57,537 nucleotides of DNA from Patescibacteria group bacterium (GTDB lineage: Bacteria > Patescibacteriota > Minisyncoccia > Phycocordibacterales > Phycocordibacteraceae). The stretch spans positions 1-57,537 of the forward strand of contig JAUPKX010000016.1 in the NCBI GenBank assembly GCA_030837225.1, given 5' to 3'. The notes under the pieces were generated by a model. The model searched no databases. It was not told the origin of the DNA and saw only the letters and a program-made list of their open reading frames with translations. A program made the translations under genes and the position numbers. Positions 5,125-28,576 of the stretch are shown here, piece by piece. Every line of letters starts with the position of its first letter. Position 1 is the stretch's first letter.

Positions 5125-5165
5125 ATCTCTCCCATAGAAGAGGTGGTCGCGTACTGAGTCCCAAA

Positions 5166-5191
5166 GGTTCGATCCCCAGTCTCCCAGCAAT
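5166..5191 (+). repeat. Array 1 leading site, short form (GGTTCGATCCCCAGTCTCCCAGCAAT), tRNA-3'-end-like
   Basis: Shares GGTTC and CCCAG.CT.CCAGCAAT with the long repeats; same form as 25623-25648. Confidence 0.8.
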
Positions 5192-5206
5192 GATAAACTG
5201 GTACTA

Positions 5207-5857
5207 ATGATAAAAGCTGAACTCAGGAAGCAGCTGGTAGATATAGCAAAAGAGCGTCAAACGAAGACCGACGTATCTCATGATTTTCAGCATGTGTTAC
5301 GTGTCTGCAACGTGGCTGAGAAGATAGCAGATACGGTGAATGCTGATCCAGAGATTGTTATACCTGCTGCGCTCTTCCACGATATCGTTGTCTATGCGAA
5401 GAATTCTCCTGAATCTCAGTTTGAGAATGAAGAGAGTGCGGAACTTGCAGGAGAGATACTCTCCTCGGTAGAGGGATATCCTTCTGAGAAGATAGAAGCA
5501 GTAAAGGCCTGTATACGCGAATGCTCGTTCTCTAAAGGAACTCTCCCTAGCTCTCTTGAATCTTCAGTGCTTCAAGATGCGGACCGCATGGATTCAGTAG
5601 GAGCAATTTCCATAATGCGAACATTCTCTTCGGGAGGACAGATGAATCGTCCTCTCTATGATCCTGAAGATCCTTTCTGTAAAGGAGAAAATCCGCCAAG
5701 CACTAGCGTGAGGCTTTTCTATAAAAGACTCTTGGTTGTAGCAGATCGGATGCACACAGACTATGCGAGAGAAGCAGCAAAACGGCGCGCTGATTTTACG
5801 AAGAGGTTCTTAGTGCAGCTTGGAATTGAGCTCGAAGAGAGTGGAATCGTTAAATAG
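5207..5857 (+). CDS. HD-domain phosphohydrolase (YedJ/YpgQ-like); cassette 1.1
   Basis: HDFQHVLRV, ALFHD, LQDADRMDSVGAI motifs. Confidence 0.88.
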   Translation: MIKAELRKQLVDIAKERQTKTDVSHDFQHVLRVCNVAEKIADTVNADPEIVIPAALFHDIVVYAKNSPESQFENEESAELAGEILSSVEGYPSEKIEAVKACIRECSFSKGTLPSSLESSVLQDADRMDSVGAISIMRTFSSGGQMNRPLYDPEDPFCKGENPPSTSVRLFYKRLLVVADRMHTDYAREAAKRRADFTKRFLVQLGIELEESGIVK

Positions 5858-5888
5858 GGTTCCAACATCGTCCCAGACTGCCAGCAAT
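5858..5888 (+). repeat. Cassette-boundary repeat, long form, copy 1
   Basis: GGTTCCAACATCGTCCCAGACTGCCAGCAAT immediately after the TAG of 5207-5857. Confidence 0.95.
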
Positions 5889-5991
5889 ACTTGTATTAAG
5901 CCCTCCGTGGGTATAGGGTGCGTATGGCTAACGCCAGGGTAGAAATACCTGTTCATGAACCCCTAACGGGACCTTGAAAAAGGAAGATGAA

Positions 5992-6468
5992 ATGGACTCG
6001 ATTGCAGACACGCTTATATGCGGATCCGCTGAAATAAATCGCATGAGAAGCGAGATTGATCTCGTTACTCAAATGCTCTTTGGGCTCGCAAAAGTTCCGC
6101 GAAATTCCAGACGATGGGAAGAAATCCGGCCAAAGCACCACCACGGTCTGATAGATTTCTCAATTAGTTTCGGCGACTTCGAGACAGTAGGGGTGGTATG
6201 GGAAGTCTGGTGGTTTAGTGGAGAAGACAAATTCCGTACCCAATGTCTACTCCAGACGTCTTCTCAGGACGATTGCCGTTGCGCATATCGGACCCGAATG
6301 CAGAGTGTGCATCGCGACTTCCACCCAACATATGGCGATCTCGGGGTCGCTGGGATCCAGAAAGCTCGAGAAACCCTGGATGTGTTTGTCGACGGAATGC
6401 TTCAGGAGTTTGGGCTAAATACCGCAACTAAGCCGTTCATAGATGCGGCAAGGATGCGAAAAGAGTAG
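5992..6468 (+). CDS. Hypothetical protein; cassette 1.2
   Basis: Only long plus-strand ORF between two repeats; ATG preceded by AAAGGAAG (alternative TTG start at 5974); own terminator. Confidence 0.65.
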   Translation: MDSIADTLICGSAEINRMRSEIDLVTQMLFGLAKVPRNSRRWEEIRPKHHHGLIDFSISFGDFETVGVVWEVWWFSGEDKFRTQCLLQTSSQDDCRCAYRTRMQSVHRDFHPTYGDLGVAGIQKARETLDVFVDGMLQEFGLNTATKPFIDAARMRKE

Positions 6469-6471
6469 TTG

Positions 6472-6512
6472 TGGCCGCCTAGTACCGAAAGGGAACGGCG
6501 GCCATTTGCTTT
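6472..6512 (+). terminator. Terminator hairpin; first 31 nt identical to 9210-9240
   Basis: tggccgcc-tagtaccgaaagggaac-ggcggcca followed by tttgcttt. Confidence 0.75.
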
Positions 6513-6517
6513 ATAAA

Positions 6518-6548
6518 AGTTCCAACATCGTCCCAGACTGCCAGCAAT
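6518..6548 (+). repeat. Cassette-boundary repeat, long form, copy 2
   Basis: AGTTCCAACATCGTCCCAGACTGCCAGCAAT. Confidence 0.95.
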
Positions 6549-6581
6549 CAGAGACAGGAGACTGCAAGTATAATTAGACCC

Positions 6582-7499
6582 ATGGAACTTCCAACGGAAC
6601 TAAAGGCTTTGTATAGGCATTGGCCAGAACATACTGCACAGCAAGCCAAACAACCTAATCTATGCGACGTATTTGAAGACGAAAAACTTTTTAAAGAGAT
6701 TTCAGCTTTCATCCATACACGGATGTCTATCTGGGAGAAGAAATATGTTGGGATGCCTCCTCCATATAGCGATGATCCAATTCTCTCCACATATCGCTTT
6801 TGTAACATCCTTAGGGAACTTGATCGACAAACAATCGAATACCACACACTCCTGAATCCGCTGCGAAGCGATTTCCAGCTGTGGCTTCTGAATATGTTTT
6901 ATTGTCGTCTGGTCGCTCGGCCAGAGACCGTACGTGCCGTTGGTCTTCTTTCCTTCGATCGCGCAAATAATGAAGCACTATACGAACGATTGAGTAAGTA
7001 TCCTCGTCCCCGATACGGCACACCGTACGTATTTCCTATAAGTACTATCTTGCGAAGCGCAACACCGACGAGAGAAGAATTCGTTGTACGACATTTGCCA
7101 GGTGTAATTGGAGGAATTGCAGAAGAAATATCCAGCTGGCGAAAACTGTCAGTAGTGGAGGGGGTAAGACGGGTGATCCCCTTATTCGGATTCAATCAGA
7201 CGTTCCTCTGGACCGAAGTACTTATTGATGTGGCGTATCAGTTTCCAGAACATATAGATCTATACAAGCCATTTCCAGTGGGTCCAGGCTCCTCTCCGAC
7301 CTTCAAGAGAATCGATCTTCATACGGAACCTTCTGAGCTTGCAGCGCAGTTAGGGCTTCTCGGATTCGAAACAAAACTAACATATGAGCGAGTGCCCCTT
7401 ACACTATCTGCTGAAAACTGGGAGGGAGTTGGTTGCGAGTTTCGCAAGTACACAAATCTAGAGTCCGGAAAGGGAAGGAGGCGTCTTTTTAAAACCTAA
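6582..7499 (+). CDS. aGPT-Pplase1 / 5-hmdU-kinase helical-domain (amino acid:DNA transferase-like) protein; cassette 1.3
   Basis: Signature PPYSDDPILSTYRFCNILRELDR, VGPGS and CEFRKY. Confidence 0.7.
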   Translation: MELPTELKALYRHWPEHTAQQAKQPNLCDVFEDEKLFKEISAFIHTRMSIWEKKYVGMPPPYSDDPILSTYRFCNILRELDRQTIEYHTLLNPLRSDFQLWLLNMFYCRLVARPETVRAVGLLSFDRANNEALYERLSKYPRPRYGTPYVFPISTILRSATPTREEFVVRHLPGVIGGIAEEISSWRKLSVVEGVRRVIPLFGFNQTFLWTEVLIDVAYQFPEHIDLYKPFPVGPGSSPTFKRIDLHTEPSELAAQLGLLGFETKLTYERVPLTLSAENWEGVGCEFRKYTNLESGKGRRRLFKT

Positions 7500-7500
7500 A

Positions 7501-7531
7501 AGTTCCAACATCGTCCCAGACCGCCAGCTCT
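7501..7531 (+). repeat. Cassette-boundary repeat, long form, copy 3
   Basis: AGTTCCAACATCGTCCCAGACCGCCAGCTCT, 1 nt after the TAA of 6582-7499. Confidence 0.95.
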
Positions 7532-7548
7532 AGTATATTTGCTACTGT

Positions 7549-8046
7549 ATGCGTATGTCACTTCCTCCAGAAGTACCCGTAGAAGACTACGTCTATAAGT
7601 ATCTTCTCGGCCCGGTAGAATCTGCCGAGGCGCTTAACCAGCCTGTGACAGAAGGAAATTGTAGGCTGGCACTACAGCTCTATTATTTTCGCGTACACGG
7701 CATATTTTTTCAGCAGAACGATATTTATCTCCCCGGTGGATACAAAGCATGGGGAGAATTTATCTTTAAAGAGGAACCAATAGATTTTGAGAAGCTCCAA
7801 CCAGGAGATGTCTTGTATGCCCAGAACTTCCGAGGAAAGAGAGGTCAGGAACTGCTCAAGGGCATAGAGAACTTTAAGGACAAAGACGAATGGTTATATC
7901 ATCTACATAGTGCCATTTACGTTGGAAAGATTAGCGGCACGCATTACATTTGGAATGCGACAAGTATTGTTGGAGCTACGATCACGTGGCCGCTAGAAAC
8001 CTTTGTATACTATTACAAGCCAATTTCGGCAAAGAGGATACTGTAA
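7549..8046 (+). CDS. NlpC/P60-like papain-fold protein; cassette 1.4
   Basis: GNC (catalytic Cys), LQPGDVLY and HSAIYVG (catalytic His). Confidence 0.65.
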   Translation: MRMSLPPEVPVEDYVYKYLLGPVESAEALNQPVTEGNCRLALQLYYFRVHGIFFQQNDIYLPGGYKAWGEFIFKEEPIDFEKLQPGDVLYAQNFRGKRGQELLKGIENFKDKDEWLYHLHSAIYVGKISGTHYIWNATSIVGATITWPLETFVYYYKPISAKRIL

Positions 8047-8047
8047 A

Positions 8048-8078
8048 GGTTCCAACATCGTCCCAGGCTGCCAGCAAT
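8048..8078 (+). repeat. Cassette-boundary repeat, long form, copy 4
   Basis: GGTTCCAACATCGTCCCAGGCTGCCAGCAAT, 1 nt after the TAA of 7549-8046. Confidence 0.95.
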
Positions 8079-8168
8079 AGTCTGAATTGTAGTCATTTCT
8101 CTTAGGCTGCAAGTTGGTAAGTTTGTGGTATAGTCCTCACGGATTAACCCAATCACAAGGAGGCCGCC

Positions 8169-9188
8169 ATGGCCGAAGCTACCTATAGGATGCAAGCGCT
8201 CGTGGTGCTTCGGGAAGGGATGCGTCTCTTCTACGATTGCCCGAGTATGAGCGGCGAAAGTTTCGAGTCTGACAATTTCTTCAGGAAGTACAAGGGCAAG
8301 ACGGGAATCATCGCAGGGTTCCCAATCACCCTCGTTGGCCCGTTCGATTCCAAAGGTCGCCTTCCGGGTTCGTACCTTACGCCCGGGTACATGCATGTTC
8401 GATTTGAGGGTGAGGAAGAGTTTCATCAAAGCCTTAATCTCCATCATTTCGTTCTGCTGGATCCGACCACCACCGTAACCGATGAAGAGTTCGACGAGGC
8501 TCAACGCAGCGGCGACCTTCCGCACCCAATCCTCTTCTATCCAGGGGATACGGTGTACAAGCAGGATGACCTGTTGCAGGTCCGTCGTGTCGTTCAAGAA
8601 GTAAAATTCGGCACTGCCGGTATTCCGCTCTATGTGTTGAGCGAAACCTCGGAAGCCACTGAGCGGCGTATGGCTGACAAGGCGGCCGATCATGCTGAGC
8701 GAGAGGCGAGAAGGGAGGCAAGCCCTGACAACCTGCCTCTCCTTTCTGGATTTTGTTCGCACGACAGGCCGGAAACGGAAACGTGTGAGGGCACGAATCT
8801 CGTGCTCCTCGAACGTGGCCACAGCTACTACCTCTACCACGACCCTTCGAAGCTATCGTTTGCGTCAGCTGAGGAAGAACTGGACTTCTGGAGTCAGGAT
8901 GGCCTGTCGAAGACCTTCTACGGACCTCGACGACTCTTCCGTACTTGGGAGTGGTCGCTGGCCCAGGCCCGAGCCCTCTTGGAGGAGGGGAAGGGAGACC
9001 TCATCGTTACTTCCAGAATGCCTAGAGGCAGGCGAGATGATTCTGAGCAGAAGTACACGGTCAGGATCCTGCACGCAGGCTTCGCTGAATATCGTGACCG
9101 CGTTCGGCAACTTGCTTTGTCCATTGCACCACCTCTCGAGAAGGAAAAAACCTTCGCAGAGTTGGGACGAGGCCTTCTGGATCTGTGA
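8169..9188 (+). CDS. Hypothetical protein; cassette 1.5
   Basis: 339-aa ORF with AAGGAGG Shine-Dalgarno, TGGTATAGT promoter box upstream and its own terminator. Confidence 0.75.
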   Translation: MAEATYRMQALVVLREGMRLFYDCPSMSGESFESDNFFRKYKGKTGIIAGFPITLVGPFDSKGRLPGSYLTPGYMHVRFEGEEEFHQSLNLHHFVLLDPTTTVTDEEFDEAQRSGDLPHPILFYPGDTVYKQDDLLQVRRVVQEVKFGTAGIPLYVLSETSEATERRMADKAADHAEREARREASPDNLPLLSGFCSHDRPETETCEGTNLVLLERGHSYYLYHDPSKLSFASAEEELDFWSQDGLSKTFYGPRRLFRTWEWSLAQARALLEEGKGDLIVTSRMPRGRRDDSEQKYTVRILHAGFAEYRDRVRQLALSIAPPLEKEKTFAELGRGLLDL

Positions 9189-9209
9189 TATCAAGTTCAA
9201 GTGCTTAAC

Positions 9210-9250
9210 TGGCCGCCTAGTACCGAAAGGGAACGGCGGCTTTTATTTTC
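9210..9250 (+). terminator. Terminator hairpin; first 31 nt identical to 6472-6502
   Basis: tggccgcctagtaccgaaagggaacggcggc followed by ttttattttc. Confidence 0.8.
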
Positions 9251-9254
9251 AAAA

Positions 9255-9285
9255 AGTTCCAACAGCGTCCCAAACTGCCTGCTAT
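9255..9285 (+). repeat. Cassette-boundary repeat, long form, copy 5 (last of array 1; diverged right arm)
   Basis: AGTTCCAACAGCGTCCCAAACTGCCTGCTAT. Confidence 0.9.
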
Positions 9286-9296
9286 ACTTCTCGCAT

Positions 9297-9734: not shown

Positions 9735-9764
9735 AATTGCAGAGTCGTGGTATAATCCACGTAT

Positions 9765-10745: not shown

Positions 10746-10754
10746 GAAGACTGT

Positions 10755-13649: not shown

Positions 13650-13691
13650 CTTTAAAAGCCCAATCTGGTATAAGAATACCACACTAATCGT

Positions 13692-14783: not shown

Positions 14784-14800
14784 TCACATTCCGTACACAC

Positions 14801-14836
14801 AGAACGCCTCGCACACTGCGAGGCGTTCTTGTTTTG
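14801..14836 (+). terminator. Intrinsic terminator
   Basis: agaacgcctcgca/tgcgaggcgttct followed by tgttttg. Confidence 0.75.
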
Positions 14837-14852
14837 TTGCTATACTTCGAGC

Positions 14853-16229: not shown

Positions 16230-16238
16230 CAAAGCAAA

Positions 16239-16262
16239 GACCGACTCACAATGGAGTCGGTC
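16239..16262. terminator. Hairpin between convergent genes
   Basis: gaccgactc/gagtcggtc 9-bp perfect stem. Confidence 0.65.
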
Positions 16263-16268
16263 CTACGC

Positions 16269-16658: not shown

Positions 16659-16807
16659 AGCGCAGTACCCCTTTCAAGGTTGCTGGACCGGGAACAAAGG
16701 CCATATATGTAATACAGCAGTGGAGACCTTTTGTCATTCAGACAATACTCAACTCTGGATATTCAAATATCACCCGAGTAGCGAGCAACGTGGTATACCT
16801 TCAGTAC

Positions 16808-17842: not shown

Positions 17843-17872
17843 GAAGTAAAGCAGGATGGTATGATAGGGCAA

Positions 17873-18706
17873 ATGAAGCCTGAGATCATCAAAGCAGACG
17901 GGACCGTTGAATTGTTCAGTGGCGAGAAACTCGAGAGATCACTTGTCCTTGCAGGAGCAAGCGAACCTACTGCTGGTCGTATACGACAAACTATCGAATC
18001 CTCCATGGGCACTTCTGCCGAAAGTGCTGAGATATATCGCCGCGCATTCCAGATGCTTCGTCAGGAGGCGCGCCCGGTTGCTGCACGATACAGTCTGAGA
18101 CGAGCACTCTTTGATCTCGGACCGTCAGGACATCCATTTGAAGACTTCGTTGCAGAACTTTTTAAGAAAGAAGGGTGGACCGTAGAAGGGAGAAGAATGA
18201 TTCCTGGGAAGTGCGTTCCCCACGAAGTCGATGTATACGCCAAGCGCGGAGACGAGCATCTTGCTGCCGAACTTAAGTACCACAATAGCCCTGGATACAA
18301 GACTGATGTGAAGGTGGCGCTCTACGTGAAGGCGCGCTTTGACGACATCTGGCAGTGCAAGGAGGATGGTTCAAAGACCTGCCCCGTTGATCTTGGTTTT
18401 CTTATTACGAACACCAAATTCACACGACAGGCTATTGATTACGCGACCTGTTCTGGTATGGGCCTCCTTGGCTGGAGCTATCCGCACGAGGGGAATCTCT
18501 ACGATCGTATTCTCGCGAACAGCCTTTTCCCTGTTACTGCCCTTACAACCCTCAAAAAAGCCGAGAAGCGACTCTTAATCGACAAGGGCATCGTTACCTG
18601 TGACCAGGTGCGGCAGAACCGGGATGTGCTCCGAAGCGTTGGTCTCACACCAGAGCGTATAGGCACAGTTGTGGCGGAAGTTAACACGCTTTGCACTAGT
18701 ACATAA
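17873..18706 (+). CDS. ATP-cone plus restriction-endonuclease-like (Mrr-type PD-(D/E)XK) protein
   Basis: IIKADGTVELFSGEKL ATP-cone start; GHPFE..V, HEVDV, ELKYH and LITNTKFT motifs. Confidence 0.8.
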   Translation: MKPEIIKADGTVELFSGEKLERSLVLAGASEPTAGRIRQTIESSMGTSAESAEIYRRAFQMLRQEARPVAARYSLRRALFDLGPSGHPFEDFVAELFKKEGWTVEGRRMIPGKCVPHEVDVYAKRGDEHLAAELKYHNSPGYKTDVKVALYVKARFDDIWQCKEDGSKTCPVDLGFLITNTKFTRQAIDYATCSGMGLLGWSYPHEGNLYDRILANSLFPVTALTTLKKAEKRLLIDKGIVTCDQVRQNRDVLRSVGLTPERIGTVVAEVNTLCTST

Positions 18707-18766
18707 GATTCTTCGTGTAGAACTTGTGTCATTGACCTACCTCCGTGAAGGAGTAGGCTTATGTGA

Positions 18767-19432
18767 ATGGCTGCGCACTATGTATTTGTTGACGAATCCG
18801 GTGATCCTGGGAAGCCGTTTACGGTTGACGAGCAAGGTAATAAGAAACCTACTGGCGCGAGTTTCTACTATATTCTCGCTGCTGTGTGCCTCACTCCGGA
18901 AAAGATGCACGCACTCGAGCATCGCATAATGCAGACGAAAACAGCGTTCGGATACATGAAGGAGATAAAAACGAACACCGTTTCCTTGAGTCTCTACAAG
19001 GCCTTGCTGGAAATCCTTAATGAACTAGAGATAACCACTTATTACCGTCTTGTCGATAAGACCACGTATCAGGGAGTATTTGCAGTCCCGGGAAAGAAGC
19101 ATCTTCACAATGTCTTTGATGAGTTCAATCTACAGAAGGTGGTAAGCGCCGCAATCAAAGAATGCGGGATGACGAATGTCGAAGTAGTTATTGATAGGGC
19201 GGAAAGACGGCTTCTCGATGGAAAGTTCGATAATTTCAATGACTACCTGAAGTCTAAGGTTAATACGAAAACGATAAAGAGAATCGGTCATGTAACACAC
19301 GTCTGTTCTCAGTACGTGCATGTCATGCAGATGTCTGATTTGATCTGCGGAGCCATAAAAGAAGGGTTCACGGGCAGAAACCCCGATCTCGTACAGGTCA
19401 TACACAGCAATCTACTTGTGCGGGTTCTATAA
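18767..19432 (+). CDS. DUF3800 family protein (RNase H-like)
   Basis: YVFVDESGDPG at the N-terminus, VVID, and MQMSDLICGA near the C-terminus. Confidence 0.85.
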   Translation: MAAHYVFVDESGDPGKPFTVDEQGNKKPTGASFYYILAAVCLTPEKMHALEHRIMQTKTAFGYMKEIKTNTVSLSLYKALLEILNELEITTYYRLVDKTTYQGVFAVPGKKHLHNVFDEFNLQKVVSAAIKECGMTNVEVVIDRAERRLLDGKFDNFNDYLKSKVNTKTIKRIGHVTHVCSQYVHVMQMSDLICGAIKEGFTGRNPDLVQVIHSNLLVRVL

Positions 19433-19472
19433 AAAGAAAAGGGGGCGCCCACTCCTGGGACACCCTTTTCAT
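19431..19472 (-). ncRNA. Candidate ~45-nt hairpin RNA convergent on the DUF3800 gene
   Basis: Minus strand reads GAAAAGGGUGUCCCA-GGAG-UGGGCGCCCCCUUUUCUUUUU, just downstream of a minus-strand consensus promoter. Confidence 0.55.
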
Positions 19473-19478
19473 ATGACT

Positions 19479-19507
19479 AGTATACGCATATTGCATGAAG
19501 ATTTCAA
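19479..19507 (-). promoter_or_regulatory. sigma70 promoter TTGAAA-N17-TATACT on the minus strand
   Basis: Plus strand shows agtata (19479-19484) and tttcaa (19502-19507), 17 nt apart. Confidence 0.7.
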
Positions 19508-19583
19508 GAAAGAGCAATCCTGTGTGTATAGCTCCAGAGTAGGTTTCTGGGTACAGAGATGTGCGAATGCTACACTTATCTCA

Positions 19584-20366
19584 ATGGCTGACTTCAAACG
19601 ATACAACCCCAATCGAGGAGCAGACTGGAACTACGGCGGGAAGAAATGGCGTCTTTCACGTTCAAAGATTGAGTTCTTTGTTGAGTGCCCACGCTGTTTT
19701 TACGTAGACAACAAGCTCGGCACGAAGCGTCCTGGCTACCCTGAGTTCACGCTTAACAAGGCAGTTGATGCGCTGTTTAAGAAGGAGTTTGATATACACC
19801 GTAAGGCTGCAACAGCACATCCTTTAATGCAGAAGTACGGCATCGATGCCGTCCCGTTCGTGCACGCAAAGATGGATACGTGGCGAGAGAACTTTGAGGG
19901 CGTTGAGTTTAAGCATGCACCAACGGGATTCGTTATCTCAGGCGCCGTAGACGATATATGGGTTAACAAAGCAGGAGAACTCATCGTTGTCGATTACAAG
20001 GCAACCTCAAAGCCCGGCACTATAGAAACACTTGGCGACTCAAGCTGGAATGAGCAATACAAGCGCCAAATGGGTGTGTATCAGTGGCTCCTACGACATA
20101 ACGGATTCGAAGTGTCTTCAATGGGGTACCTGGTCTACGCAAACGCGCATGACGACAAGGAAGCATTCGATGCGAAGCTTGAGTTTGAAGTAACAGTTGT
20201 TGAATGCGAAGGGCAGTCAGAGTGGATTGATGAGATTCTGCCGCGCATCAAGGAAACACTCGAGAGCGATGCTATACCGGCTATAGGAGAGGCCTGCGAA
20301 TTCTGCCCATACCGCGAGGCAGCAGGAAAGAAACTCCTTGCAATGCATCAAGCGAATAAGAAGTAG
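19584..20366 (+). CDS. PD-(D/E)XK nuclease, Cas4/RecB-like
   Basis: LSRSKIE...CPRCFY, GAVDD, VVDYKAT, QMGVY and CEFCPY motifs. Confidence 0.85.
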   Translation: MADFKRYNPNRGADWNYGGKKWRLSRSKIEFFVECPRCFYVDNKLGTKRPGYPEFTLNKAVDALFKKEFDIHRKAATAHPLMQKYGIDAVPFVHAKMDTWRENFEGVEFKHAPTGFVISGAVDDIWVNKAGELIVVDYKATSKPGTIETLGDSSWNEQYKRQMGVYQWLLRHNGFEVSSMGYLVYANAHDDKEAFDAKLEFEVTVVECEGQSEWIDEILPRIKETLESDAIPAIGEACEFCPYREAAGKKLLAMHQANKK

Positions 20367-20369
20367 CCT

Positions 20370-21035
20370 ATGGAGGTTCGGATTGGAGAGTCCTGGAGGA
20401 AAAGACTCGAAGGGGAGTTTGAAAAGCCATACTTTCAAGAGCTTACGAAGTTTGTAGAGGAGGAGTATGCAAGCGGTGTAGTCTATCCAGACTCGAAAAA
20501 TATATTCCGTGCATTCGAACTCGCGCCTTTTGAAGAGGTGAAGGTTGTTATTCTAGGACAGGACCCGTATCACGGACCTAACCAAGCGATAGGACTGTCA
20601 TTTGCGGTTGAGGAGGGAATTACGCTTCCGCCTTCCCTTCGCAATATCTACAAAGAGATTGAGAGCGATACAGGGAAGAAACCACTGGCTTCAGGCGATC
20701 TCTCCCGTTGGGCAGCGCAAGGAGTACTGCTTTTGAATGCAACACTTACGGTTCGAGCTGCCTCGCCTGGTTCGCATCACGGAAAAGGTTGGGAAGAATT
20801 CACTGATGCGGTTATACGAGTTCTTTCTGAAGAACGTGAGCACCTTGTTTTCATTCTGTGGGGAAACTACGCAAGAACGAAGGGCGCTCATATAGATCGT
20901 ACAAAGCATTTGGTTATTGAGTCTGCACACCCGTCTCCATTCTCAGCCAGGAATGGATTCTTTGGATCAAGACCTTTTAGTGTGGCAAATACTTATCTAT
21001 TCGAAAAAGGGAAGTCAGCAATTGAGTGGCGCTAG
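20370..21035 (+). CDS. ung: Uracil-DNA glycosylase family 1
   Basis: GQDPYH, PPSLRNIYKE, LLLNATLTV and HPSPFS motifs. Confidence 0.97.
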   Translation: MEVRIGESWRKRLEGEFEKPYFQELTKFVEEEYASGVVYPDSKNIFRAFELAPFEEVKVVILGQDPYHGPNQAIGLSFAVEEGITLPPSLRNIYKEIESDTGKKPLASGDLSRWAAQGVLLLNATLTVRAASPGSHHGKGWEEFTDAVIRVLSEEREHLVFILWGNYARTKGAHIDRTKHLVIESAHPSPFSARNGFFGSRPFSVANTYLFEKGKSAIEWR

Positions 21036-21095
21036 ATCAAAAGACCATGGTATAAGGATTGTGGAATTGAAACCTTGGTTTGAAAGGAACATGAA

Positions 21096-21644
21096 ATGGT
21101 TGCGAGACTTGGCTTTACGCGCCACGCGCACCAAAGAGTATATGAAGACCGGACTGTTTTGATCGAGCAGGACATACTCGAAATCATTGAGAATGATGAG
21201 TGTATTGAACTTCGTCGGGAACGTAAGCGCATAGCGCACTTACTTTTCTACAGCGTAGAGGACAGTGATTGGCTTGTGTTGATTGTAGACAGTAGCAACG
21301 GTGCAATCATTACAGTCCTTACGCGCTCAATGTACACAAAAGGAATAACCAATGAACAATTGAATGACGCGAAGAATCGTGCGTTACCAGATGTAATCAT
21401 TCATGCAGAAGTCGGTGCAGGTAGTGGTTCATGCGGGTCTGCAATGCAATTAGTGTATCTTGGAAACATTTCCTCTTCAGTAAGACCTCGCAATCTCTTG
21501 TATTGGTCAGCGTTTGAAGAAGTACGGGAGATAATTCATAGACACGCTGCGAAGCGACTCGGAAGCACTCCCTGCATAAACCTTCACTTAAAGGTGCGGA
21601 AGAAAGGCAAGCCTTGCATGAAGGCTGTAGTACCTTGGAGCTAG
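21096..21644 (+). CDS. Hypothetical protein (N-terminus resembles DUF4258/RelE-like small nucleases)
   Basis: FTRHAHQRV.ED...IITV pattern; own TGGTATAAG promoter box and downstream hairpin. Confidence 0.5.
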   Translation: MVARLGFTRHAHQRVYEDRTVLIEQDILEIIENDECIELRRERKRIAHLLFYSVEDSDWLVLIVDSSNGAIITVLTRSMYTKGITNEQLNDAKNRALPDVIIHAEVGAGSGSCGSAMQLVYLGNISSSVRPRNLLYWSAFEEVREIIHRHAAKRLGSTPCINLHLKVRKKGKPCMKAVVPWS

Positions 21645-21692
21645 CTCTCGGATTCATTCCGAGGGCTTTCCATTTTCCATAAAGAGTCGTTT

Positions 21693-23666
21693 TTACCAAA
21701 CCATCTCGCGGTCCTTAGCTGCGCGGAAATGCCTGTCTCCTTTCTTTACGGCATACGCAGCGTAGAACTTCTCAAAGTTCGAGACCGGACCATTGATACG
21801 GAACACTCCCGGAGAATGCGGGTCCGTAAGAACTTGCATCTTAGTGAACTCAGGACGGCAGTTCTCACGCTCAAAAAGGGAGAAACCGATAAAGAAGCGC
21901 TCCTCTGGCGAAAGGCCGTCGATATCTTTTCTCCCTGTTCGGGCGAGCTGAAGCTGATACGCGTCATACGCTATAGAAAGCCCTCCAAGATCTGCAATAT
22001 TCTCGCCAAGCGTAAGCTTGCCGTTCACCTTGATACCGTCAGCAACCTCATAGGTATCGAATTGCTTCTCAACTTTCTTGGCTTTTGCCATGAAGCGCTT
22101 CCTGTCCTCCGGTGTCCACCAGCTTTTTAGATTTCCCTTTGCATCGAACTTTGAACCCTCATCGTCAAAGCCGTGTGTGATCTCATGCCCAATAACGGTG
22201 CCGATAGCTCCGTAGTTAAGTGCATCGTCAGCGCCGAAATTGAAGAAAGGGGGCTGGAGAATGGCCGCAGGGAAGACAATGTCGTTCATCGTTGGCTGGT
22301 AGTAGGCATTAACGGTCTGTGGGTACATGAGCCACTCAGCGCGATCAACAGGCTTTCCAAGTCTCCGCATATCCCTTTTGTGCTCATACTCGGTTGCGCG
22401 CATGATATTGCCCACATAATCGTCATGGCGAATAACGAGACCTGCATAGGATCGCCACTTCTTTGGGTACCCAATCTTTCTATTGAAAGTAGAGAGCTTT
22501 AGAAGTGCCTTCTTCTTGGTGGCTTGAGACATCCAATCGAGTGAACGTAGACGTGTTTCGTATGCAGTAAATAGGTCATCAACAAGATGGTCCATCTTCT
22601 TCTTAGCTTCAGGAGGGAAATGTCGCTCTACATAGAGCTTCCCAAGAACCTCGCCAAGCGTTCCGTTAACCGTTGAGAGCGCACGTCTCCACAGAGGCTT
22701 CAGAGCCTTAGTACCCATAAGGGTCTTTCCATAGAACGAGAAGCTCTGCTTTATAAATGCATCAGACAGGGCCCCTGAGAACTCGTTCACGACGTGGAAA
22801 GAAAGGTACGTCTTCCAGTCTTCAAGGGAGACAGACTCGAGAAGAGTATTAACCCCCTCAAAGAAGTCTGGCTGCATAACGAGGTAATACTCAGCCTTCG
22901 TTGCGCCGATACGTGTAAGGTATGCGTCCCAATCTATACCTGGTGCGAGCTTGTTCAGCTTCGATAGGGAGAATTTGTGATAAATCTTCTCTGGATCCCG
23001 CATGTCTTCCTTTCGCATGGACAACTTCGCCAGATCTGTCTCGATTCGCAGGAGGATGTCCGCACTCTTCGTTGCGTTCAGCTGTGTGAGGCCCATGAGA
23101 CGGAATACTTTCTGAGCATGAATAGCAAAAGCTTCTCGAACACGCTTCGACTCAGTGTCATCTTTTAGGTAGTACTCGCGATCTGGCAAGCTCAAGCCTC
23201 CTTGTCCAAGATAGAAGGCATACGCCTCGCTGTTCTTCATGTCCTGATCGATATCGAATCCCCATACCGCATTTACGTCCATCCTGTGGAGTACAGCGAG
23301 TACCTTCTGAAGACCCGCTAGGTCCTTAATGCGATTAATGGATTCGAGGGTAGGAGAGAGTGGAGAGAGTCCGAGCTTGTTTCGTCGCTCCATATCCATA
23401 CCTGAGCTATAGAGATCGCGAACCATACGCTCAGCTCCCTTGCTCGGAAGGTTCTTCTTACTTCTGAGCTCCTCTACAAGGACCCGTATCTGCTTCTCTG
23501 TTTCGAACCTGAGTATATTAAAGGAACCCCAGCGAGACTCGGTCTTTGGAATTGGGTTCTTATCCATCCACGTTTTGTGGACATGATGATAGAAATCGTC
23601 CTGAGGTCGTATACCTGAATCAAGCTCTTTAACATCGAAACCCCAGGAGTTCTTTTTCATAGCCAT
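21693..23666 (-). CDS. M13 family (neprilysin/PepO-like) zinc metallopeptidase
   Basis: RPQDDFY, VNAYY, HEITHGFDD and GENIADLGG motifs. Confidence 0.96.
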   Translation of the reverse strand: MAMKKNSWGFDVKELDSGIRPQDDFYHHVHKTWMDKNPIPKTESRWGSFNILRFETEKQIRVLVEELRSKKNLPSKGAERMVRDLYSSGMDMERRNKLGLSPLSPTLESINRIKDLAGLQKVLAVLHRMDVNAVWGFDIDQDMKNSEAYAFYLGQGGLSLPDREYYLKDDTESKRVREAFAIHAQKVFRLMGLTQLNATKSADILLRIETDLAKLSMRKEDMRDPEKIYHKFSLSKLNKLAPGIDWDAYLTRIGATKAEYYLVMQPDFFEGVNTLLESVSLEDWKTYLSFHVVNEFSGALSDAFIKQSFSFYGKTLMGTKALKPLWRRALSTVNGTLGEVLGKLYVERHFPPEAKKKMDHLVDDLFTAYETRLRSLDWMSQATKKKALLKLSTFNRKIGYPKKWRSYAGLVIRHDDYVGNIMRATEYEHKRDMRRLGKPVDRAEWLMYPQTVNAYYQPTMNDIVFPAAILQPPFFNFGADDALNYGAIGTVIGHEITHGFDDEGSKFDAKGNLKSWWTPEDRKRFMAKAKKVEKQFDTYEVADGIKVNGKLTLGENIADLGGLSIAYDAYQLQLARTGRKDIDGLSPEERFFIGFSLFERENCRPEFTKMQVLTDPHSPGVFRINGPVSNFEKFYAAYAVKKGDRHFRAAKDREMVW

Positions 23667-23706
23667 ATAGCGCACAGTATAGCCGCCATGCTATCGTCAT
23701 ACCACT

Positions 23707-25623
23707 ATGACTGTATCTGAAGTCCGTAAGCGATTCCTGGCATTCTACGAGGCCCGTGGCCATGTGATTATCCCATCAGCTCCTATTGTGCCCGGGAACG
23801 ATCCAACAACGCTCTTCACCTCAAGTGGCATGCAGCCCTTGCTCCCATACTTCCTTGGAAAGGATCATCCGGAAGGAAAGCGCGTGGTGAACTCTCAGCT
23901 CGCCTTCCGTGCAGGAGACATTGAGGAAGTAGGAGACAATCGTCACACGACATTCTTCGAGATGCTCGGGAACTGGTCCTTTGGTGACTATTTCAAGCAG
24001 GAACAGCTGCCGTGGATATTTGAGTTCCTTACGAGTACCGAGACGGGCTTTGGTATTGATCCAAGTAAGCTGTATGTAACCGTGCTTGCAGAGGACAAGG
24101 AGGCGGGCATCCCGCTTGATACAGAAGCCGTAGAGCTCTGGAAACGACTGTTTAAGGAAAAGGGAGTTGCTGCGGAGTTCTCTAACATAGGCAGCGAAGC
24201 TGATGGATACGAGAAAGGCATGGGAACAAGCGATCGCATATTTGCGTATGACGCCAAGAAGAACTGGTGGAGCCGCTCAGGGGTGCCAAGTAATATGCCA
24301 GCAGGCGAACCAGGGGGTCCTGACTCAGAGATTTTTTATGACTTCGGGACGACGCACGATACAAAATGGGGCACTCACTGCCATCCGAACTGTGACTGTG
24401 GGCGGTTTGTTGAGATAGGGAACTCGGTGTTTATGCAGTTTGTTAAGAATGAAGATGGTTCCTTTGAGGAGCTTCCGAAGAAGAATATCGATTTTGGCGG
24501 AGGCCTCGAGCGTATAACGATGGCAACCGTTGGACCAGATATCTTTAGTCTTGATATCTTTGACGCTGCTCGCGCGGTTATTGAAGAACGCTCTGGAAAG
24601 AAGTATGGGGAAGATGAGGCTGCTGCTCGCGCATTCCGCATCATTCTCGACCACATGCGCGCGAGCGCGTTCATGCTAGCCGAAGGAATCCTCCCGTCTA
24701 ACACCGAGGCAGGCTATGTACTACGCCGGTTGCTTCGTCGTGCGATACGCGAATCAGATCGTCTTGGTATCAAGGACGCCGTACTCGCTGACGTTGCGAG
24801 GGGGTATGGGCAGGCGTATGCCGACCAGTACCCACACGTACTTGCAAACGCTCCGAAGATAGCAGAGGAGATTGCAAAAGAGGAGGAGAAATTCCGCAAA
24901 ACCCTTACGGGCGGCATGCGCGAGCTAGAGAAGTTAGTAGCAAAGGGCTCTGTTACTCCAGAGGATGTGTTTACCCTGTTTACGTCCTATGGCTTCCCTG
25001 TTGAATTAACTGAAGAGATTGCGAACGAGCGTGAGATAGAGATAGACCTCGCTGGCGTACTCGAGCTTATGAAGAAGCATCAAGAGACCTCAAGGGCAGG
25101 AGGAGCCCAGCGCTTTGCGGGCGGACTTGCAGACCACGCAGAGCAGACGGTACGGTATCACACCGCACACCATATCCTTCTAAAGGCGCTTCAGATGGTG
25201 CTTGGTTCAGAGGTTAAGCAGCGCGGTTCAAACATAACCTCTGAGCGTCTTCGTATAGACTTTGCATCTCCAGGCAAGATGACGGACGAACAGAAAGCTG
25301 AGGTTGAGAAGATTGTGAACGAGGTTATATACCAGGATCTTCCGGTTACGCGTACTGTTATGCCACGCGAAGAGGCAGAGAAACTTGGAGCTGAGATGGA
25401 GTTCGGTGTTAAGTATCCGGATATGGTGTCGGTATATTCTGTTGGCCCAATACACGCAACAGAAGAGACCCCGGATATCCCTAACGCGTTTTCTCTTGAG
25501 TTCTGCGGAGGGCCGCACGTATCTAATACAAGCGAGATACATGCAGACGGAAGGAAGTTCCGTATTCAGAAGGAAGAAGCGGTAGCGAGCGGTGTTCGCA
25601 GGATTAAGGGGGTGTTGGAGTAG
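23707..25623 (+). CDS. alaS: Alanine--tRNA ligase (short form without C-Ala domain)
   Basis: DPTTLFTSSGMQP, RHTTFFEMLGNWS, HTAHH and EFCGGPH; ends at GVRRIK. Confidence 0.97.
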   Translation: MTVSEVRKRFLAFYEARGHVIIPSAPIVPGNDPTTLFTSSGMQPLLPYFLGKDHPEGKRVVNSQLAFRAGDIEEVGDNRHTTFFEMLGNWSFGDYFKQEQLPWIFEFLTSTETGFGIDPSKLYVTVLAEDKEAGIPLDTEAVELWKRLFKEKGVAAEFSNIGSEADGYEKGMGTSDRIFAYDAKKNWWSRSGVPSNMPAGEPGGPDSEIFYDFGTTHDTKWGTHCHPNCDCGRFVEIGNSVFMQFVKNEDGSFEELPKKNIDFGGGLERITMATVGPDIFSLDIFDAARAVIEERSGKKYGEDEAAARAFRIILDHMRASAFMLAEGILPSNTEAGYVLRRLLRRAIRESDRLGIKDAVLADVARGYGQAYADQYPHVLANAPKIAEEIAKEEEKFRKTLTGGMRELEKLVAKGSVTPEDVFTLFTSYGFPVELTEEIANEREIEIDLAGVLELMKKHQETSRAGGAQRFAGGLADHAEQTVRYHTAHHILLKALQMVLGSEVKQRGSNITSERLRIDFASPGKMTDEQKAEVEKIVNEVIYQDLPVTRTVMPREEAEKLGAEMEFGVKYPDMVSVYSVGPIHATEETPDIPNAFSLEFCGGPHVSNTSEIHADGRKFRIQKEEAVASGVRRIKGVLE

Positions 25624-25648
25624 GTTCGATACTCAGACTGCGAGCAAT
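25623..25648 (+). repeat. Array 2 leading site, short form (GGTTCGATACTCAGACTGCGAGCAAT)
   Basis: Overlaps the alaS stop codon; same length and layout as 5166-5191; CAGACTGC.AGCAAT matches the long repeats. Confidence 0.8.
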
Positions 25649-25666
25649 AATTGCTATACTCAAGCT

Positions 25667-26122
25667 ATGGCAGATACAATTTTCGACAAACTCCTCAAAG
25701 GAAACATTCCGTCATGGAAAGTCTGGGAAGATGAGAAGTTTCTAGCTTTTCTAACGCCATTTCCCAACACGCCGGGACTAACGGTTGTAATACCCAAGCA
25801 GAATATTGGAGACTATGTTTTTAACCTGCAAGAGTCAGAGTACGAAGAGTTATTGAAGACGGCGAAGACCGTAGCCAAGATTCTGGAAAAGGCATTCAAT
25901 ACTCCTCGCGTATCATTAATATTTGAAGGTACTGGTGTGGCTCATGTTCACGCAAAGCTCGTCCCACTCCATGGAGAATTAGCCGAGCAGACAGGAGTAT
26001 GGAGTCCTCATACTGAATTCAATGAGCAATATCTTGGTTACCTTACTACTGCAGAAGGTCCAAAAATGGATGATTCGGAACTGGATCGAATTCAAGGACT
26101 CATTCTTGAAGCACAGAAATAA
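25667..26122 (+). CDS. HIT family nucleotide hydrolase; cassette 2.1
   Basis: TIFDKLL.G.IP, FLTPFPNTPG.TVVIPK and VAHVHAK (third His of HxHxH replaced by Lys). Confidence 0.9.
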   Translation: MADTIFDKLLKGNIPSWKVWEDEKFLAFLTPFPNTPGLTVVIPKQNIGDYVFNLQESEYEELLKTAKTVAKILEKAFNTPRVSLIFEGTGVAHVHAKLVPLHGELAEQTGVWSPHTEFNEQYLGYLTTAEGPKMDDSELDRIQGLILEAQK

Positions 26123-26152
26123 GTTCCAACATCGTCCCAGACTGCCAGCCCG
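26122..26152 (+). repeat. Cassette-boundary repeat, long form, copy 6
   Basis: AGTTCCAACATCGTCCCAGACTGCCAGCCCG overlapping the HIT stop codon. Confidence 0.95.
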
Positions 26153-26167
26153 ATATACAATGGACGT

Positions 26168-26494
26168 ATGTTGCAAGGAACTATCGTTGAGAATAGTCTA
26201 ACTGACCCTACTGTCTTAGGAGACTTGTCTATTCTTAAGAGTTGGCCTGAAGGGTCTTGGAAGCTTCATCAAGTGCAACTTGATAGAGAGCAGGCAATTG
26301 AGCTAGCAACCTTTCTAGCTGACGGGCCTTGGTATATGCATTTCTGGGAGCCGGGTACTGAAGATGTACTCGTTGTTTTTAAAGACAAAACTTTTGACAT
26401 AAAGTATTCAGACAAATCTACATGGGAAGAAGCGGTTGCCTATGGGAAGTCGACTGGTGTTCCCGAGGAGCAACTAGATTTTCTGATTTACTAA
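26168..26494 (+). CDS. Hypothetical protein; cassette 2.2
   Basis: 108 aa; G.IVENSL, WYMHF and YGKS.GVPEEQLDF motifs; ATG 6 nt after TACAAT. Confidence 0.8.
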   Translation: MLQGTIVENSLTDPTVLGDLSILKSWPEGSWKLHQVQLDREQAIELATFLADGPWYMHFWEPGTEDVLVVFKDKTFDIKYSDKSTWEEAVAYGKSTGVPEEQLDFLIY

Positions 26495-26525
26495 GGTTCC
26501 AACATCGTCCCACACCCCCAGCAAC
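26495..26525 (+). repeat. Cassette-boundary repeat, long form, copy 7 (last of array 2; diverged right arm)
   Basis: GGTTCCAACATCGTCCCACACCCCCAGCAAC, between the TAA at 26494 and the convergent stop at 26526. Confidence 0.92.
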
Positions 26526-27362
26526 CTAATCTTGAACCGTAACCTCAGTGCCAACCGGCGCCCACCCATACAACTCTCTGGCTATATCAAGGGGTACATT
26601 CACACACCCATGAGACCACTGCTGTCCGAAGTTGGTGTGCCAGTACGCGCCGTGTATAGCGCCCCCTTCAGCCGTGAAGTACATATTCCAGGGAACACCT
26701 GGTAGGTCGTAATAATCCTCAGATATGCCCGGGAGAGGTCCTTGCATATACCGACTTGGAGTCTTCTTAAACACTTTGAAGTTCCCGCGTGGCGTTGGAG
26801 TTAAATCGTGTCCGGTTGAGATTGTAGTCTTTAAAACGAGTTCCTTGCCATCATACGCATAAAGCATCTGCTCAGAACGATCGACAACGATACGCTTATC
26901 TGTTGGCTCGTCTCCAGTCATTGGTAATGTAGCCCCTGGGTCATAGAACGCGCGCACCTGGTCGCTCGCTACATACCAATCCTTCGCTACTCGATCTGGA
27001 TAGCGTATCCACTCGTTGAACTCCACCTTGTACCAAACGCGTCCAGACGCATCCGTCTCGGTGTCTTTTGATATAGGAAGTACCGTTCCGGTACGTAGTT
27101 TTCCAATAGCGGGAGCCGACGTCGTTGCTTCCATGCGTATGTTTACGCAGCTTCCAGAGAAGTCAGCGCCGCACCCGTCGAGCACTTCGATAAAGGATGG
27201 TACTTCCGTTTTTGGTTCCTCGGCAAATATAAGCTCAGAAACCGCACTCGTTGTTTCCTCAAGTGAAACAATCTTTCCGTTATATGCAAAGAATGTTAGG
27301 CACGCTGCCGCAAGCGCACCAATCAGGAGCGATACGAGCAAAATCTTCTTATCCCTATCCAT
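26526..27362 (-). CDS. L,D-transpeptidase (YkuD) with N-terminal TM and SH3-like domain
   Basis: IVVDRSEQ, ISTG...TPRG and AIHGAYWH...SHGCVN motifs. Confidence 0.92.
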   Translation of the reverse strand: MDRDKKILLVSLLIGALAAACLTFFAYNGKIVSLEETTSAVSELIFAEEPKTEVPSFIEVLDGCGADFSGSCVNIRMEATTSAPAIGKLRTGTVLPISKDTETDASGRVWYKVEFNEWIRYPDRVAKDWYVASDQVRAFYDPGATLPMTGDEPTDKRIVVDRSEQMLYAYDGKELVLKTTISTGHDLTPTPRGNFKVFKKTPSRYMQGPLPGISEDYYDLPGVPWNMYFTAEGGAIHGAYWHTNFGQQWSHGCVNVPLDIARELYGWAPVGTEVTVQD

Positions 27363-27415
27363 GTCCCTAGAGTACCGTACCGGGTACTCTCAGTCATCCT
27401 GGTATACTAGCCTGC

Positions 27416-28576
27416 ATGGCTCTTTTTCCCTTCGGAAAGAAGAAAACGCGCTCAGTCGCGCTCATTGATATTGGTTCAGCTTCAGTGGGCGGCGCCTACG
27501 CGCATTATGAGGAAGGGAAGCCGCCAATTATCTACTACACTGCCCGTGTTGACGTTGAGGTCCGCGAAGGCGAGACCATTTTGGAAGGCATGCTTCGTTC
27601 ACTCTCCTTTCTCGAGCGCCTCCTTATAGAGGAAGGGGCTCCGGCGCTCAGGCGTGAGACCGGGAGCGCGGTTATTGAGAAAGTACTCGTATCAGTAGCC
27701 GCTCCCTGGCAAGAAACCCTTGTTACAACAACAAACATTCAGCAGAAGAACGCGTTCATCTTTTCGCACCTCCACCTTGCTGATGCCGTTAGGAAGACGG
27801 CCATAGTACCAAAGGACCGTGTGAGTTCTGGCCACACTGTTATAGCAACCATCCTGAACGGATATGAGACGCCCAATCCTTTTGGAAAGCGCGTATCCCG
27901 TGCAGAACTCGTTATCCTCGCATCAACGCTTGAAAAAGAGGCGGCCCATGCCGTTGAGGCCTCGCTTAGAAGGGCATTTCATACAAATGAGATTGAACTA
28001 ACGGCCTTTGCGCCCGTTGCGTACACCGTGTTCAGAGACCTCTACCCACACCAGAAGGATTTCGTAGTGCTTGATGTGTCCGGGACTGGTACAGACGCCG
28101 CATTCGTGAAGCGAGGACTCCTCGTTGAGGTCCGGAGCGTTGCGTATGGCACCCAAGACCTCCTAATTGCCGCTAAGAAGGCAGGGCAACGGGCACACCT
28201 ATCGACCGTTGATATGATTGATCCGGTTGCGAACGAATCCTTTGCAAAGGAATCGGAGGAAGCAGAGCGTATATGGCTCGATGGGTTGCATGGAGCGTTC
28301 TCGAGCGTCGCGGGGGTCCAGGCACTTCCGCGCACCTTGCTCCTTCTTGCAGATACCGAAGCCCGCGACTATTTGAAGCGTGCCTTGGAGAAGAGCAGGC
28401 TCCGTTCGTTGTGGCTTTCAGACGAGCCATTATCCGTTATACCAATAACACCTTCGCACCTGGCGGCGAGGGTAAAGACAAGGGGACTTGGAGACGGGGA
28501 CTTGTTCCTGGCGTTGCTCGCGCTCTACGTCGCACGGGGTACGAATCTTCCCGAAGCACCTGCTGAATCGCTGTAG
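27416..28576 (+). CDS. FtsA/PilM-like actin-fold protein
   Basis: LIDIGSASV, LNGY and VLDVSGTGTD phosphate-loop-like motifs. Confidence 0.65.
   Translation: MALFPFGKKKTRSVALIDIGSASVGGAYAHYEEGKPPIIYYTARVDVEVREGETILEGMLRSLSFLERLLIEEGAPALRRETGSAVIEKVLVSVAAPWQETLVTTTNIQQKNAFIFSHLHLADAVRKTAIVPKDRVSSGHTVIATILNGYETPNPFGKRVSRAELVILASTLEKEAAHAVEASLRRAFHTNEIELTAFAPVAYTVFRDLYPHQKDFVVLDVSGTGTDAAFVKRGLLVEVRSVAYGTQDLLIAAKKAGQRAHLSTVDMIDPVANESFAKESEEAERIWLDGLHGAFSSVAGVQALPRTLLLLADTEARDYLKRALEKSRLRSLWLSDEPLSVIPITPSHLAARVKTRGLGDGDLFLALLALYVARGTNLPEAPAESL

Follow-up and report, generated by a model that had tools for sequence, protein, structure and literature searches.

How did two short genes, each followed by a copy of the same repeat, come to lie directly behind alaS in the small genome of a bacterium of the Patescibacteria? 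Members of this lineage have minimal genomes and live on other cells, and the way in which they gain and shuffle accessory genes is poorly understood. The locus belongs to a contig of 57,537 nucleotides (JAUPKX010000016.1, or C6, analyzed over its full length and hereafter called the window) of a genome referred to as G000, which comprises 666,753 bp in 16 contigs and is 97.9% complete. The reading that we favor, with a probability of roughly 0.7, is that mobile cassettes of one gene each make up a small array behind alaS, and that this array belongs to an integron-like system by which Patescibacteria (ultra-small bacteria of the Candidate Phyla Radiation) capture genes. An earlier note on the same DNA had already described a cassette array at this place.

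The block behind alaS in G000 and its relatives

In G000, alaS (23707..25623, plus strand; Pfam tRNA-synt_2c, E 2.1e-119) encodes 638 amino acids (aa) and ends in a TAG that also forms the first three nucleotides of an attI-like short site (25620..25650, plus strand; extended form TAG-GTTCGATACTCAGACTGCGAGC-AATAA), detected with an nhmmer profile built from 37 short sites (E 0.0036, 13.2 bits). The 22-nt GTTCGATACTCAGACTGCGAGC begins at 25624, and alaS stays intact because the TAGG of the site overlaps its stop codon. On the same strand follows the first cassette, an accessory gene for a 151-aa HIT-family hydrolase (25667..26122; Pfam HIT PF01230, E 2e-10, 41.6 bits against a cut-off of 21.5), whose TAA stop abuts a long site, attC-like in role (26117..26152; nhmmer E 5.5e-12), with the perfect 27-mer GTTCCAACATCGTCCCAGACTGCCAGC at 26123-26149. 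The second cassette, a gene for a 108-aa protein (26168..26494), is followed by a long site with a variant right arm, GTTCCAACATCGTCCCACACCCCCAGC plus AAC (26493..26525, core 26496-26522; nhmmer E 4.5e-9), the last recognizable site of the array, in which all three mismatches lie in or beside that arm. Three bases past it is the stop codon (26526-26528) of a convergent gene for a 278-aa YkuD-type L,D-transpeptidase with an SH3 domain (26526..27362, minus strand; Pfam YkuD, E 7.1e-23). Between this gene and a conserved gene of 386 aa (27416..28576, plus strand) lies a spacer (27363..27415) whose letters were read as a hairpin (AGAGTACC..GGTACTCT) followed by a TATACT box, the promoter element of the 386-aa gene. 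Up to the transpeptidase stop, every element that the earlier note had listed was found in its place, and the start-to-start spacings of 499 and 373 nt came out the same on recomputation. The identity that it had seen between the perfect site and a copy in another array of the window is real and extends over 29 nt (26121-26149 and 6517-6545) rather than 28. The last site, which had been described as having a diverged right arm, indeed shows the three mismatches, and its arm ..CACCCCCAGC is close to ..GACCCCCAGC, the standard variant in other lineages. The guanine-plus-cytosine (GC) content is 0.43-0.45 in the HIT and 108-aa cassettes and 0.50-0.55 in the flanks.

Sixty other species of the genus were searched with the C-terminal part of alaS, and the neighborhoods, when read, showed a conserved gene order: alaS and the 386-aa gene come first, genes of 445 aa, 91 aa (on the opposite strand) and 203 aa follow, and rpsD is last. 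alaS was found in 60 of the 61 genus genomes, and the 638 aa found in G000 compare with open frames of 515-1117 aa (mostly 630-720) at the loci of 29 relatives. In six relatives (G020, G028, G063, G082, G018 and G080) alaS and the 386-aa gene, which follows it directly, are separated by 20-95 nt in which neither site type is present. Inserts were found after alaS in G000 (1.8 kb), G021 (0.87 kb) and G035 (2.5 kb); they consist of mutually unrelated DNA, and each begins with a short site on the alaS TAG. In the insert of G021, the closest sampled relative of G000 (aa identity of 96% for alaS, 98.6% for YchF and 99-100% for Xer), a degenerate long site stands between two reversed genes, one of 102 aa before it and one of 84 aa after it. 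The insert of G035 has two Nudix-type genes, so named from the Nudix-box motif read by eye in the translations; a perfect long site, a 197-aa gene and a degenerate long site, in this order, separate them, and two reversed open reading frames (ORFs) follow the second. When the last sites of the alaS arrays of G000 and G021 are compared, the left parts differ and a CCCCCA right part is held in common, the G021 copy being degenerate.

The right border of the block follows from the same comparison. In BLASTN, identity between G000 and G021 is 86.9% up to 25650, where the short site and its AATAA end, and resumes at 27399 at 80%. None of the HIT, 108-aa and transpeptidase genes occurs within 1.5 kb of alaS in the 29 relatives' loci; the transpeptidase gene is not beside alaS in eight relatives and, when searched for in five close relatives, was not found save for one weak partial match (E 2.3e-4). 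Given the six empty relatives and the different DNA in the two nearest array-bearing ones, we conclude that the whole block from 25651 to 27398, transpeptidase included, is an insertion. The end that had been set at 26525 therefore does not hold: homology resumes only at 27399 and the transpeptidase gene is missing beside alaS in relatives, so the array reaches past the last site and the insert runs to about 27398. The transpeptidase gene is accessory DNA within the inserted block, and it is possibly an old reversed cassette with a decayed far site; a candidate for a decayed site at 27383-27402, seen by eye only, was dropped for want of a profile match. Insertion behind an essential gene without disrupting it, as the earlier note had proposed, is borne out by the full-length alaS and by the direct join in the six empty relatives. 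Its two predictions for relatives fared differently, since different cassettes were met in two of them, whereas a single hybrid site was not, the six empty relatives having no site at all.

The cassette HIT protein shares 34% identity with a housekeeping HIT paralog of the same genome (contig C12, 154047). For the 108-aa protein, which has no match in Pfam, NCBIfam or PADLOC, an alpha/beta fold is predicted confidently, with a predicted local distance difference test score (pLDDT) of 92.2; a Foldseek comparison with the PDB gave a best E of 0.09 and no solved relative. Similar small proteins stand in unnamed clusters of the Atlas, where some models fuse the fold to XRE-type helix-turn-helix domains.

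Site sequences, array grammar and distribution

With up to three mismatches allowed, the 27-mer occurs seven times in the window, always on the plus strand, against 0.00 copies expected from 100 shuffles, and 14 times in the whole of G000 (five of them perfect), against none for a reversed control. At up to seven mismatches the genome holds about 20 long-site copies, spread over five contigs, and arrays are located behind YchF, alaS and tRNA-Gln and between xth and xer, in agreement with the proposal that several chromosomal loci are involved. Sequence logos were built from 166 distinct long-site and 37 distinct short-site instances. Positions 1-20 of the long site are at least 92% conserved and its flanks vary; any base may stand at position 21 (T 46%, A 23%, C 15%, G 14%), and positions 22-27 read GCCAGC, followed by AAT. 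A 3' core, CCYAGWCTGCCAGC(AAT), is common to short and long sites. The short-site consensus equals the last 22 nt of the tRNA-Gln(TTG) gene (contig C4, 59883-59954), and the CAATA that follows agrees too; the best short-site copies match the tRNA-Gln end at 21-22 of 22 positions, and the copy at alaS, by our own count, at 16 of 22. The 3' end of a tRNA gene is a classic target of integrative elements. The long site has only the 14-nt 3' core in common with the tRNA-Gln gene end, and the idea that it is itself a tRNA 3' half was rejected, its T-arm register being unpaired and no tRNA of G000 ending in this way.

A repeat that stands between a stop codon and the next promoter, and that is co-oriented with most neighboring genes in the window, might also be an expression signal, that is, a terminator, processing site or regulon operator that accompanies accessory genes by chance. 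We consider this very improbable. Single-stranded DNA folding of three long sites on both strands yielded no stable fold (-1.3 to -3.8 kcal/mol, z -0.03 to +1.58), and Rfam returned no family at gathering score in six site-bearing loci of G000 outside the window. The promoters point the same way. TATACT stands 6 nt before the ATG of the HIT gene, whose transcript is, judging from this spacing, likely leaderless, and -10-like boxes were seen by eye 6-8 nt before cassette start codons, yet they lie anywhere between 0 and 23 nt from the repeat. In reversed cassettes, TTGACA-type promoters were recognized beside the downstream site, likewise by eye, and a scan for consensus promoters and terminators found nothing above shuffles (one promoter-like site against 3.0 expected). 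By our own count, 14 of the 40 cassettes with a longest ORF of 100 aa or more are oriented against the site; site orientation is thus independent of gene orientation, which suggests a function at the DNA level. A regulatory element would also not explain why the repeat marks the exact borders of presence/absence polymorphisms.

Those borders are visible at the other arrays. The first array of the window (5164..9286, plus strand) lies behind YchF and consists of a short site (5164-5193; profile E 4e-9), five cassettes and five long sites (at 5859, 6519, 7502, 8049 and 9256, the copies spanning 5859-9282), followed by MgtC; the cassettes encode an HD phosphohydrolase, a 164-aa protein, an HMUDK-like protein of 305 aa and proteins of 165 and 339 aa. 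Behind YchF, G021 has one unrelated cassette in place of these five, the flanks being 85-87% identical in DNA, and the short site and the last long site, with its unusual ..GCCTGC end before MgtC, are common to both genomes. At the xth-xer locus of G021, one short site follows the xer TAG without a gap, and xth comes next. The same interval in G000, read from xth toward xer, contains a short site, then inserted DNA that includes a cassette for a 109-aa membrane protein, and finally a long site in which the ..GCCAAC-TA end of the empty G021 site is retained. Judged by these sequences, the pattern is that of the hybrid site which reciprocal site-specific recombination would be expected to leave. 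Recent activity of the system, another claim of the earlier note, accordingly has the support of comparison, as G021 differs in content at three shared loci with proteins that are 96-100% identical, rather than of direct demonstration.

The arrangement follows a simple grammar: all 13 arrays parsed in G000, G020, G021, G022 and G035 open with a short site and continue with long sites, and their 53 cassette intervals measure 156-2955 nt. In a comparison of 52 cassette proteins only three pairs proved to be related, the best at 78% identity (G020 and G022). With the GC dip noted above, this makes the cargo look like a flexible gene pool.

Further details of the arrays were recorded in G000. Another array occupies positions 18676-21140 of contig C1. 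Its short site is at 18676, a long-type site follows at 19005, and near 21131 the sequence begins like a long site; a third, distant HIT-family gene lies within this array at 20257-20562. In the window, 46-nt copies (85% identical) of a GC-rich terminator hairpin with a T-run stand directly before two long sites (6472-6517 and 9210-9255), and this shared terminator module seems to travel with some unrelated cassettes. At the xth-xer locus, about 250 nt without a good ORF (contig C12, 179530-179780) separate the first long site from the short site and the terminator that accompanies it; the stretch yielded no Rfam family at gathering score and could be an ORF-less cassette or an RNA of an unnamed family. 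The cassette sites on C12 are on the minus strand below 70 kb and on the plus strand above 179 kb.

The long site is sparsely distributed. At up to three mismatches it was found in seven of 61 genomes counting G000, that is, in six of 36 in the genus and in none of 25 single genomes of other families; when the order was sampled evenly, at up to two mismatches, 17 of 401 genomes and 15 of 223 genera had it. Some lineages of the order possess their own site variants, with arrays of up to seven copies. A scan of a genome collection returned at least 115 site-bearing stretches; 80 loci were examined and 69 passed a flank filter, which removed only a conserved alphaproteobacterial coding match. Most of these 69 loci come from Patescibacteria records, and at least five are titled otherwise (Kaistia, Azospirillum, two Desulfobacterota-type and one Acidobacteria). 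Public records with the repeat are titled Paceibacterota, Parcubacteria or Patescibacteria.

Proposed exchange at the sites and the search for an enzyme

If the cassette reading is right, an array would start at a 22-nt short site that copies the end of the tRNA-Gln gene and would have a 27-nt long site after each cassette. A site-specific recombinase acting in trans would cross two sites within their shared core, around long-site positions 19-21. A putative circular cassette with one long site would enter at a short or a long site, which would produce a short-left/long-right site on one side and a long-left/target-right site on the other; recombination between two direct sites would re-excise it. 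The cassettes would carry their own promoters in either orientation. From the three loci compared between G000 and G021, few cases as they are, we infer an exchange point between positions 19 and 21.

The only tyrosine recombinase of G000 is represented by one Phage_integrase match on a contig other than that of the window (C12, 180195-181142). It passes the NCBIfam XerA-type model (243.6 bits, cut-off 220) and fails the integron-integrase model (126.8 bits, cut-off 265) as well as the XerC and XerD models. Archaeal recombinases of the XerA type work without FtsK. Provided that the system operates by site-specific recombination, this protein is a tentative candidate for the enzyme and is rather unlikely to be the right one. 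The fuller proposal is somewhat more doubtful still: a housekeeping XerA-type recombinase would double as cassette integrase, with the tRNA-Gln-end mimic as platform and the 27-nt, double-stranded, non-folding site as cassette site, so that arrays could form behind any gene of the 0.67-Mb genome that ends in TAG-G. The sole tyrosine recombinase is a housekeeping protein present in nearly all members of the genus.

Several observations weigh against the cassette reading, beginning with this enzyme. The XerA-type recombinase is found in 81 of 86 genus genomes, mostly at 70-100% identity, and most recombinase-bearing genomes have no arrays (of 36 genus genomes scanned for the long site, 30 lack it). 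The xer gene abuts a site in G000 and G021 only and in none of 28 other loci (150 nt per locus, read by eye), so that this adjacency is probably one more insertion behind a TAG and not a platform. In G000, searches returned no serine or resolvase-type recombinase, Y1 transposase or rve, an IS110 match remaining below threshold at 15.5 bits. The 69 site-bearing loci (of up to 8 kb) contain no Xer homolog detectable with BLASTP at E < 1e-5, a comparison by pairwise search rather than by family models. The logo of the 166 long sites has no dyad symmetry, which is unlike usual tyrosine-recombinase cores. At the position of a G in cassette sites, the genuine tRNA-Gln gene retains the C that its acceptor stem needs; insertion into this gene would then be rare, selected against or resolved toward the tRNA base, and crossovers to the left of the C cannot often take place there.

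An exchange that needs no recombinase would dispense with the missing enzyme. The sites would serve as short homology anchors through which cassettes are gained, lost or swapped by RecA after DNA uptake, as in replacement-type flexible genomic islands; that no dedicated enzyme was found and that the sites are non-palindromic speaks for it, as does their identity over 27-29 nt, which is roughly the minimum length for RecA pairing. Passive anchors, on the other hand, need no particular sequence, whereas positions 1-20 of the long site are conserved to the degree given above in a site present in 15 genera, with position 21 free. Plain homology also leaves the short-then-long grammar of the 13 arrays and the hybrid end at the xer locus unexplained, and we regard this alternative as improbable.

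Two more of the adverse observations concern the fate of the array. A profile search of the spacer 27363..27415 found no site, so its right end is not a site. In contigs of the public runs X5 and X6, which belong to two other studies, the same alaS-HIT-108-aa arrangement appears with five and three differing letters, respectively; the array is thus unchanged there, and among the assembled contigs no circular or empty-site junction was seen, although assembled contigs, the only form in which these data were used, make rare variants invisible. In three contigs of X7, from a fourth study, the DNA that precedes 26493 is different, a hint, no more, of a relative with another cassette before the same last site; a joint from 25630 to 26493 in X7 is supported by 25 letters only. 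A joint from 9240 to 26121 in run X1 was discarded as a repeat artefact. The constancy in X5 and X6, the degenerate distal sites, an array without a recognizable end, a short site that equals a tRNA-Gln 3' end and the lack of an integrase in cis would all suit decayed, now inert remains of tRNA-Gln-targeting integrative elements that have lost their integrase, stacked at an attachment (att) site like cis-mobilizable elements (CIMEs). Many sites are nevertheless perfect, five of the 14 in G000 among them, genomes with flanking proteins that are 96-100% identical have different cargo at three loci, and the units are single genes of 0.3-1.2 kb and not deletion remnants of large elements, so that we judge such fossil accretion unlikely, slightly more so than exchange by RecA.

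The last adverse observation comes from homologs of the cargo. The earlier note had suggested checking whether homologs of both cassette genes are flanked by the repeat at other loci, and had named their never being so flanked as one of two outcomes that would speak against it. Homologs of the 108-aa protein are present in 10 of 134 other genus genomes at 27-60% identity, and HIT proteins closer than the housekeeping paralog occur sporadically at about 15 loci at 33-77% identity. No site was found within 1.5 kb of any of these 25 loci (0 of 10 and 0 of 15), 13 of which were also read by eye over 110 nt on either side. Formally, this is the second of those outcomes. The negative is a genuine one for these two genes, and it is qualified by the distance of the homologs (27-77% identity overall) and by the fact that at least 20 of the 25 loci are in genomes in which no cassette site was found. 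Four of the host genomes (G066, G018, G107 and G134) have one to five matches to the site patterns elsewhere, and in G090 a single short-type match was taken as its tRNA-Gln end.

Other candidates for an enzyme or a parent element were tried and rejected. Clustering 558 ORFs from the 69 loci, in search of a conserved neighbor gene, gave housekeeping families only, for instance a DnaX-like family in 12 loci. A perfect palindrome resembling a canonical dif site (contig C12, 73723-73744; 10-nt arms, 6-nt spacer) occurs once in G000 and is not conserved in the genus, the 22 of 111 genomes that match being no clear excess over those hit by a control pattern. In viral contigs, a phage attP was sought in three ways: 37 contigs match a 20-mer of the long site, 33 in one conserved coding sequence and four in another; the short-site scan hit one phage tRNA-Gln gene; and the right-half scan hit one coding region of 67% GC. 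Short copies of the Xer C-terminus, 51-58% identical and with one TAA each, were noted in G001 (contig C26, 5578-5685), G099 (C24, 96206-96304) and G006 (C24, 235-351). Those of G001 and G099 lie 1-2 kb downstream of an intact xer, and in G006 the copy is on C24 and the xer match on C18; in G001 and G099 at least, other elements seem to insert at the xer 3' end and to bring a replacement end.

Elsewhere in the window, the leucyl-tRNA synthetase (10755-13649, 964 aa) has a NUDIX domain directly after its editing domain (residues 401-518; Pfam E 2.7e-12), which is unusual, and a 363-aa protein (13692-14780) pairs sigma-70 region 4 with a HARE-HTH domain, an uncommon combination. A 53-nt direct repeat, 77% identical, is located at 51549-51601 and 52095-52147, its copies 546 nt apart.

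Comparison with known systems

Full-text literature searching, in which listings and the openings of abstracts were seen, brought up no description of this cassette system. A 22-nt platform site and a 27-nt cassette site seem to be enough for many miniature arrays beside core genes, and turnover of their cargo is seen between genomes with 96-100% identity in core proteins. If the proposed mechanism is true, integron-like gene capture would extend to a major uncultured lineage, in a variant that needs neither folded attC sites nor a dedicated integrase. Its sites would then provide a simple sequence handle for cataloguing the flexible gene pool in metagenomes, and the recombination system, being compact, might serve as a tool.

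Among repeat arrays of other kinds, those of clustered regularly interspaced short palindromic repeats (CRISPR), with repeats of 25-40 nt, differ in their short regular spacers; here the spacings are 373-1207 nt and every interval holds a gene. The likeness to tRNA-targeting integrative elements and CIMEs is closer. In those elements the att site is a tRNA gene 3' end, integrase-less units lie between direct att repeats and units stack in tandem at the target. Integrase-less units stacked in tandem between direct repeats recur in the present arrays, in which the short site matches the tRNA-Gln end and the long site does so over the 14-nt core only. The arrays differ, however, in that the units are single genes, in that a second, 27-nt site type exists which is not a copy of the tRNA end, and in that protein genes without a tRNA also serve as anchors. 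No integrase-bearing parent element using the same site was found in G000, in the 69 loci or in the three scans of viral contigs.

Integrative mobile elements exploiting Xer (IMEX) and the pdif modules of Acinetobacter plasmids are small gene modules between sites of about 28 nt that are moved by a housekeeping recombinase. Small modules bounded by short sites are found here as well, in a genome whose only tyrosine recombinase is of the Xer type. The present sites, by contrast, lack the dif-like 11-6-11 dyad, and all sites of an array are direct and not alternating.

The most extensive comparison is that with integrons, among them the CALIN clusters, which have no integrase. Diverse, mostly single-gene cassettes, a platform site at the start and a site after each cassette, as in the 13 parsed arrays, are common to both, and so is insertion that leaves neighboring genes undamaged. 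In chromosomal integrons the sites are homogenized within a lineage, as they are here. On the other side, no IntI is encoded next to the array, and the sites are 27 nt long, sequence-defined, non-palindromic and unfolded, unlike attC sites, whose imperfect inverted repeats fold in single-stranded DNA. A genome contains many small arrays in place of the one platform, the cassettes have their own promoters in either orientation, and the platform site copies the end of a tRNA gene. The system thus lacks the IntI and the folded attC by which integrons are defined, but in layout and behavior it works like an integron.

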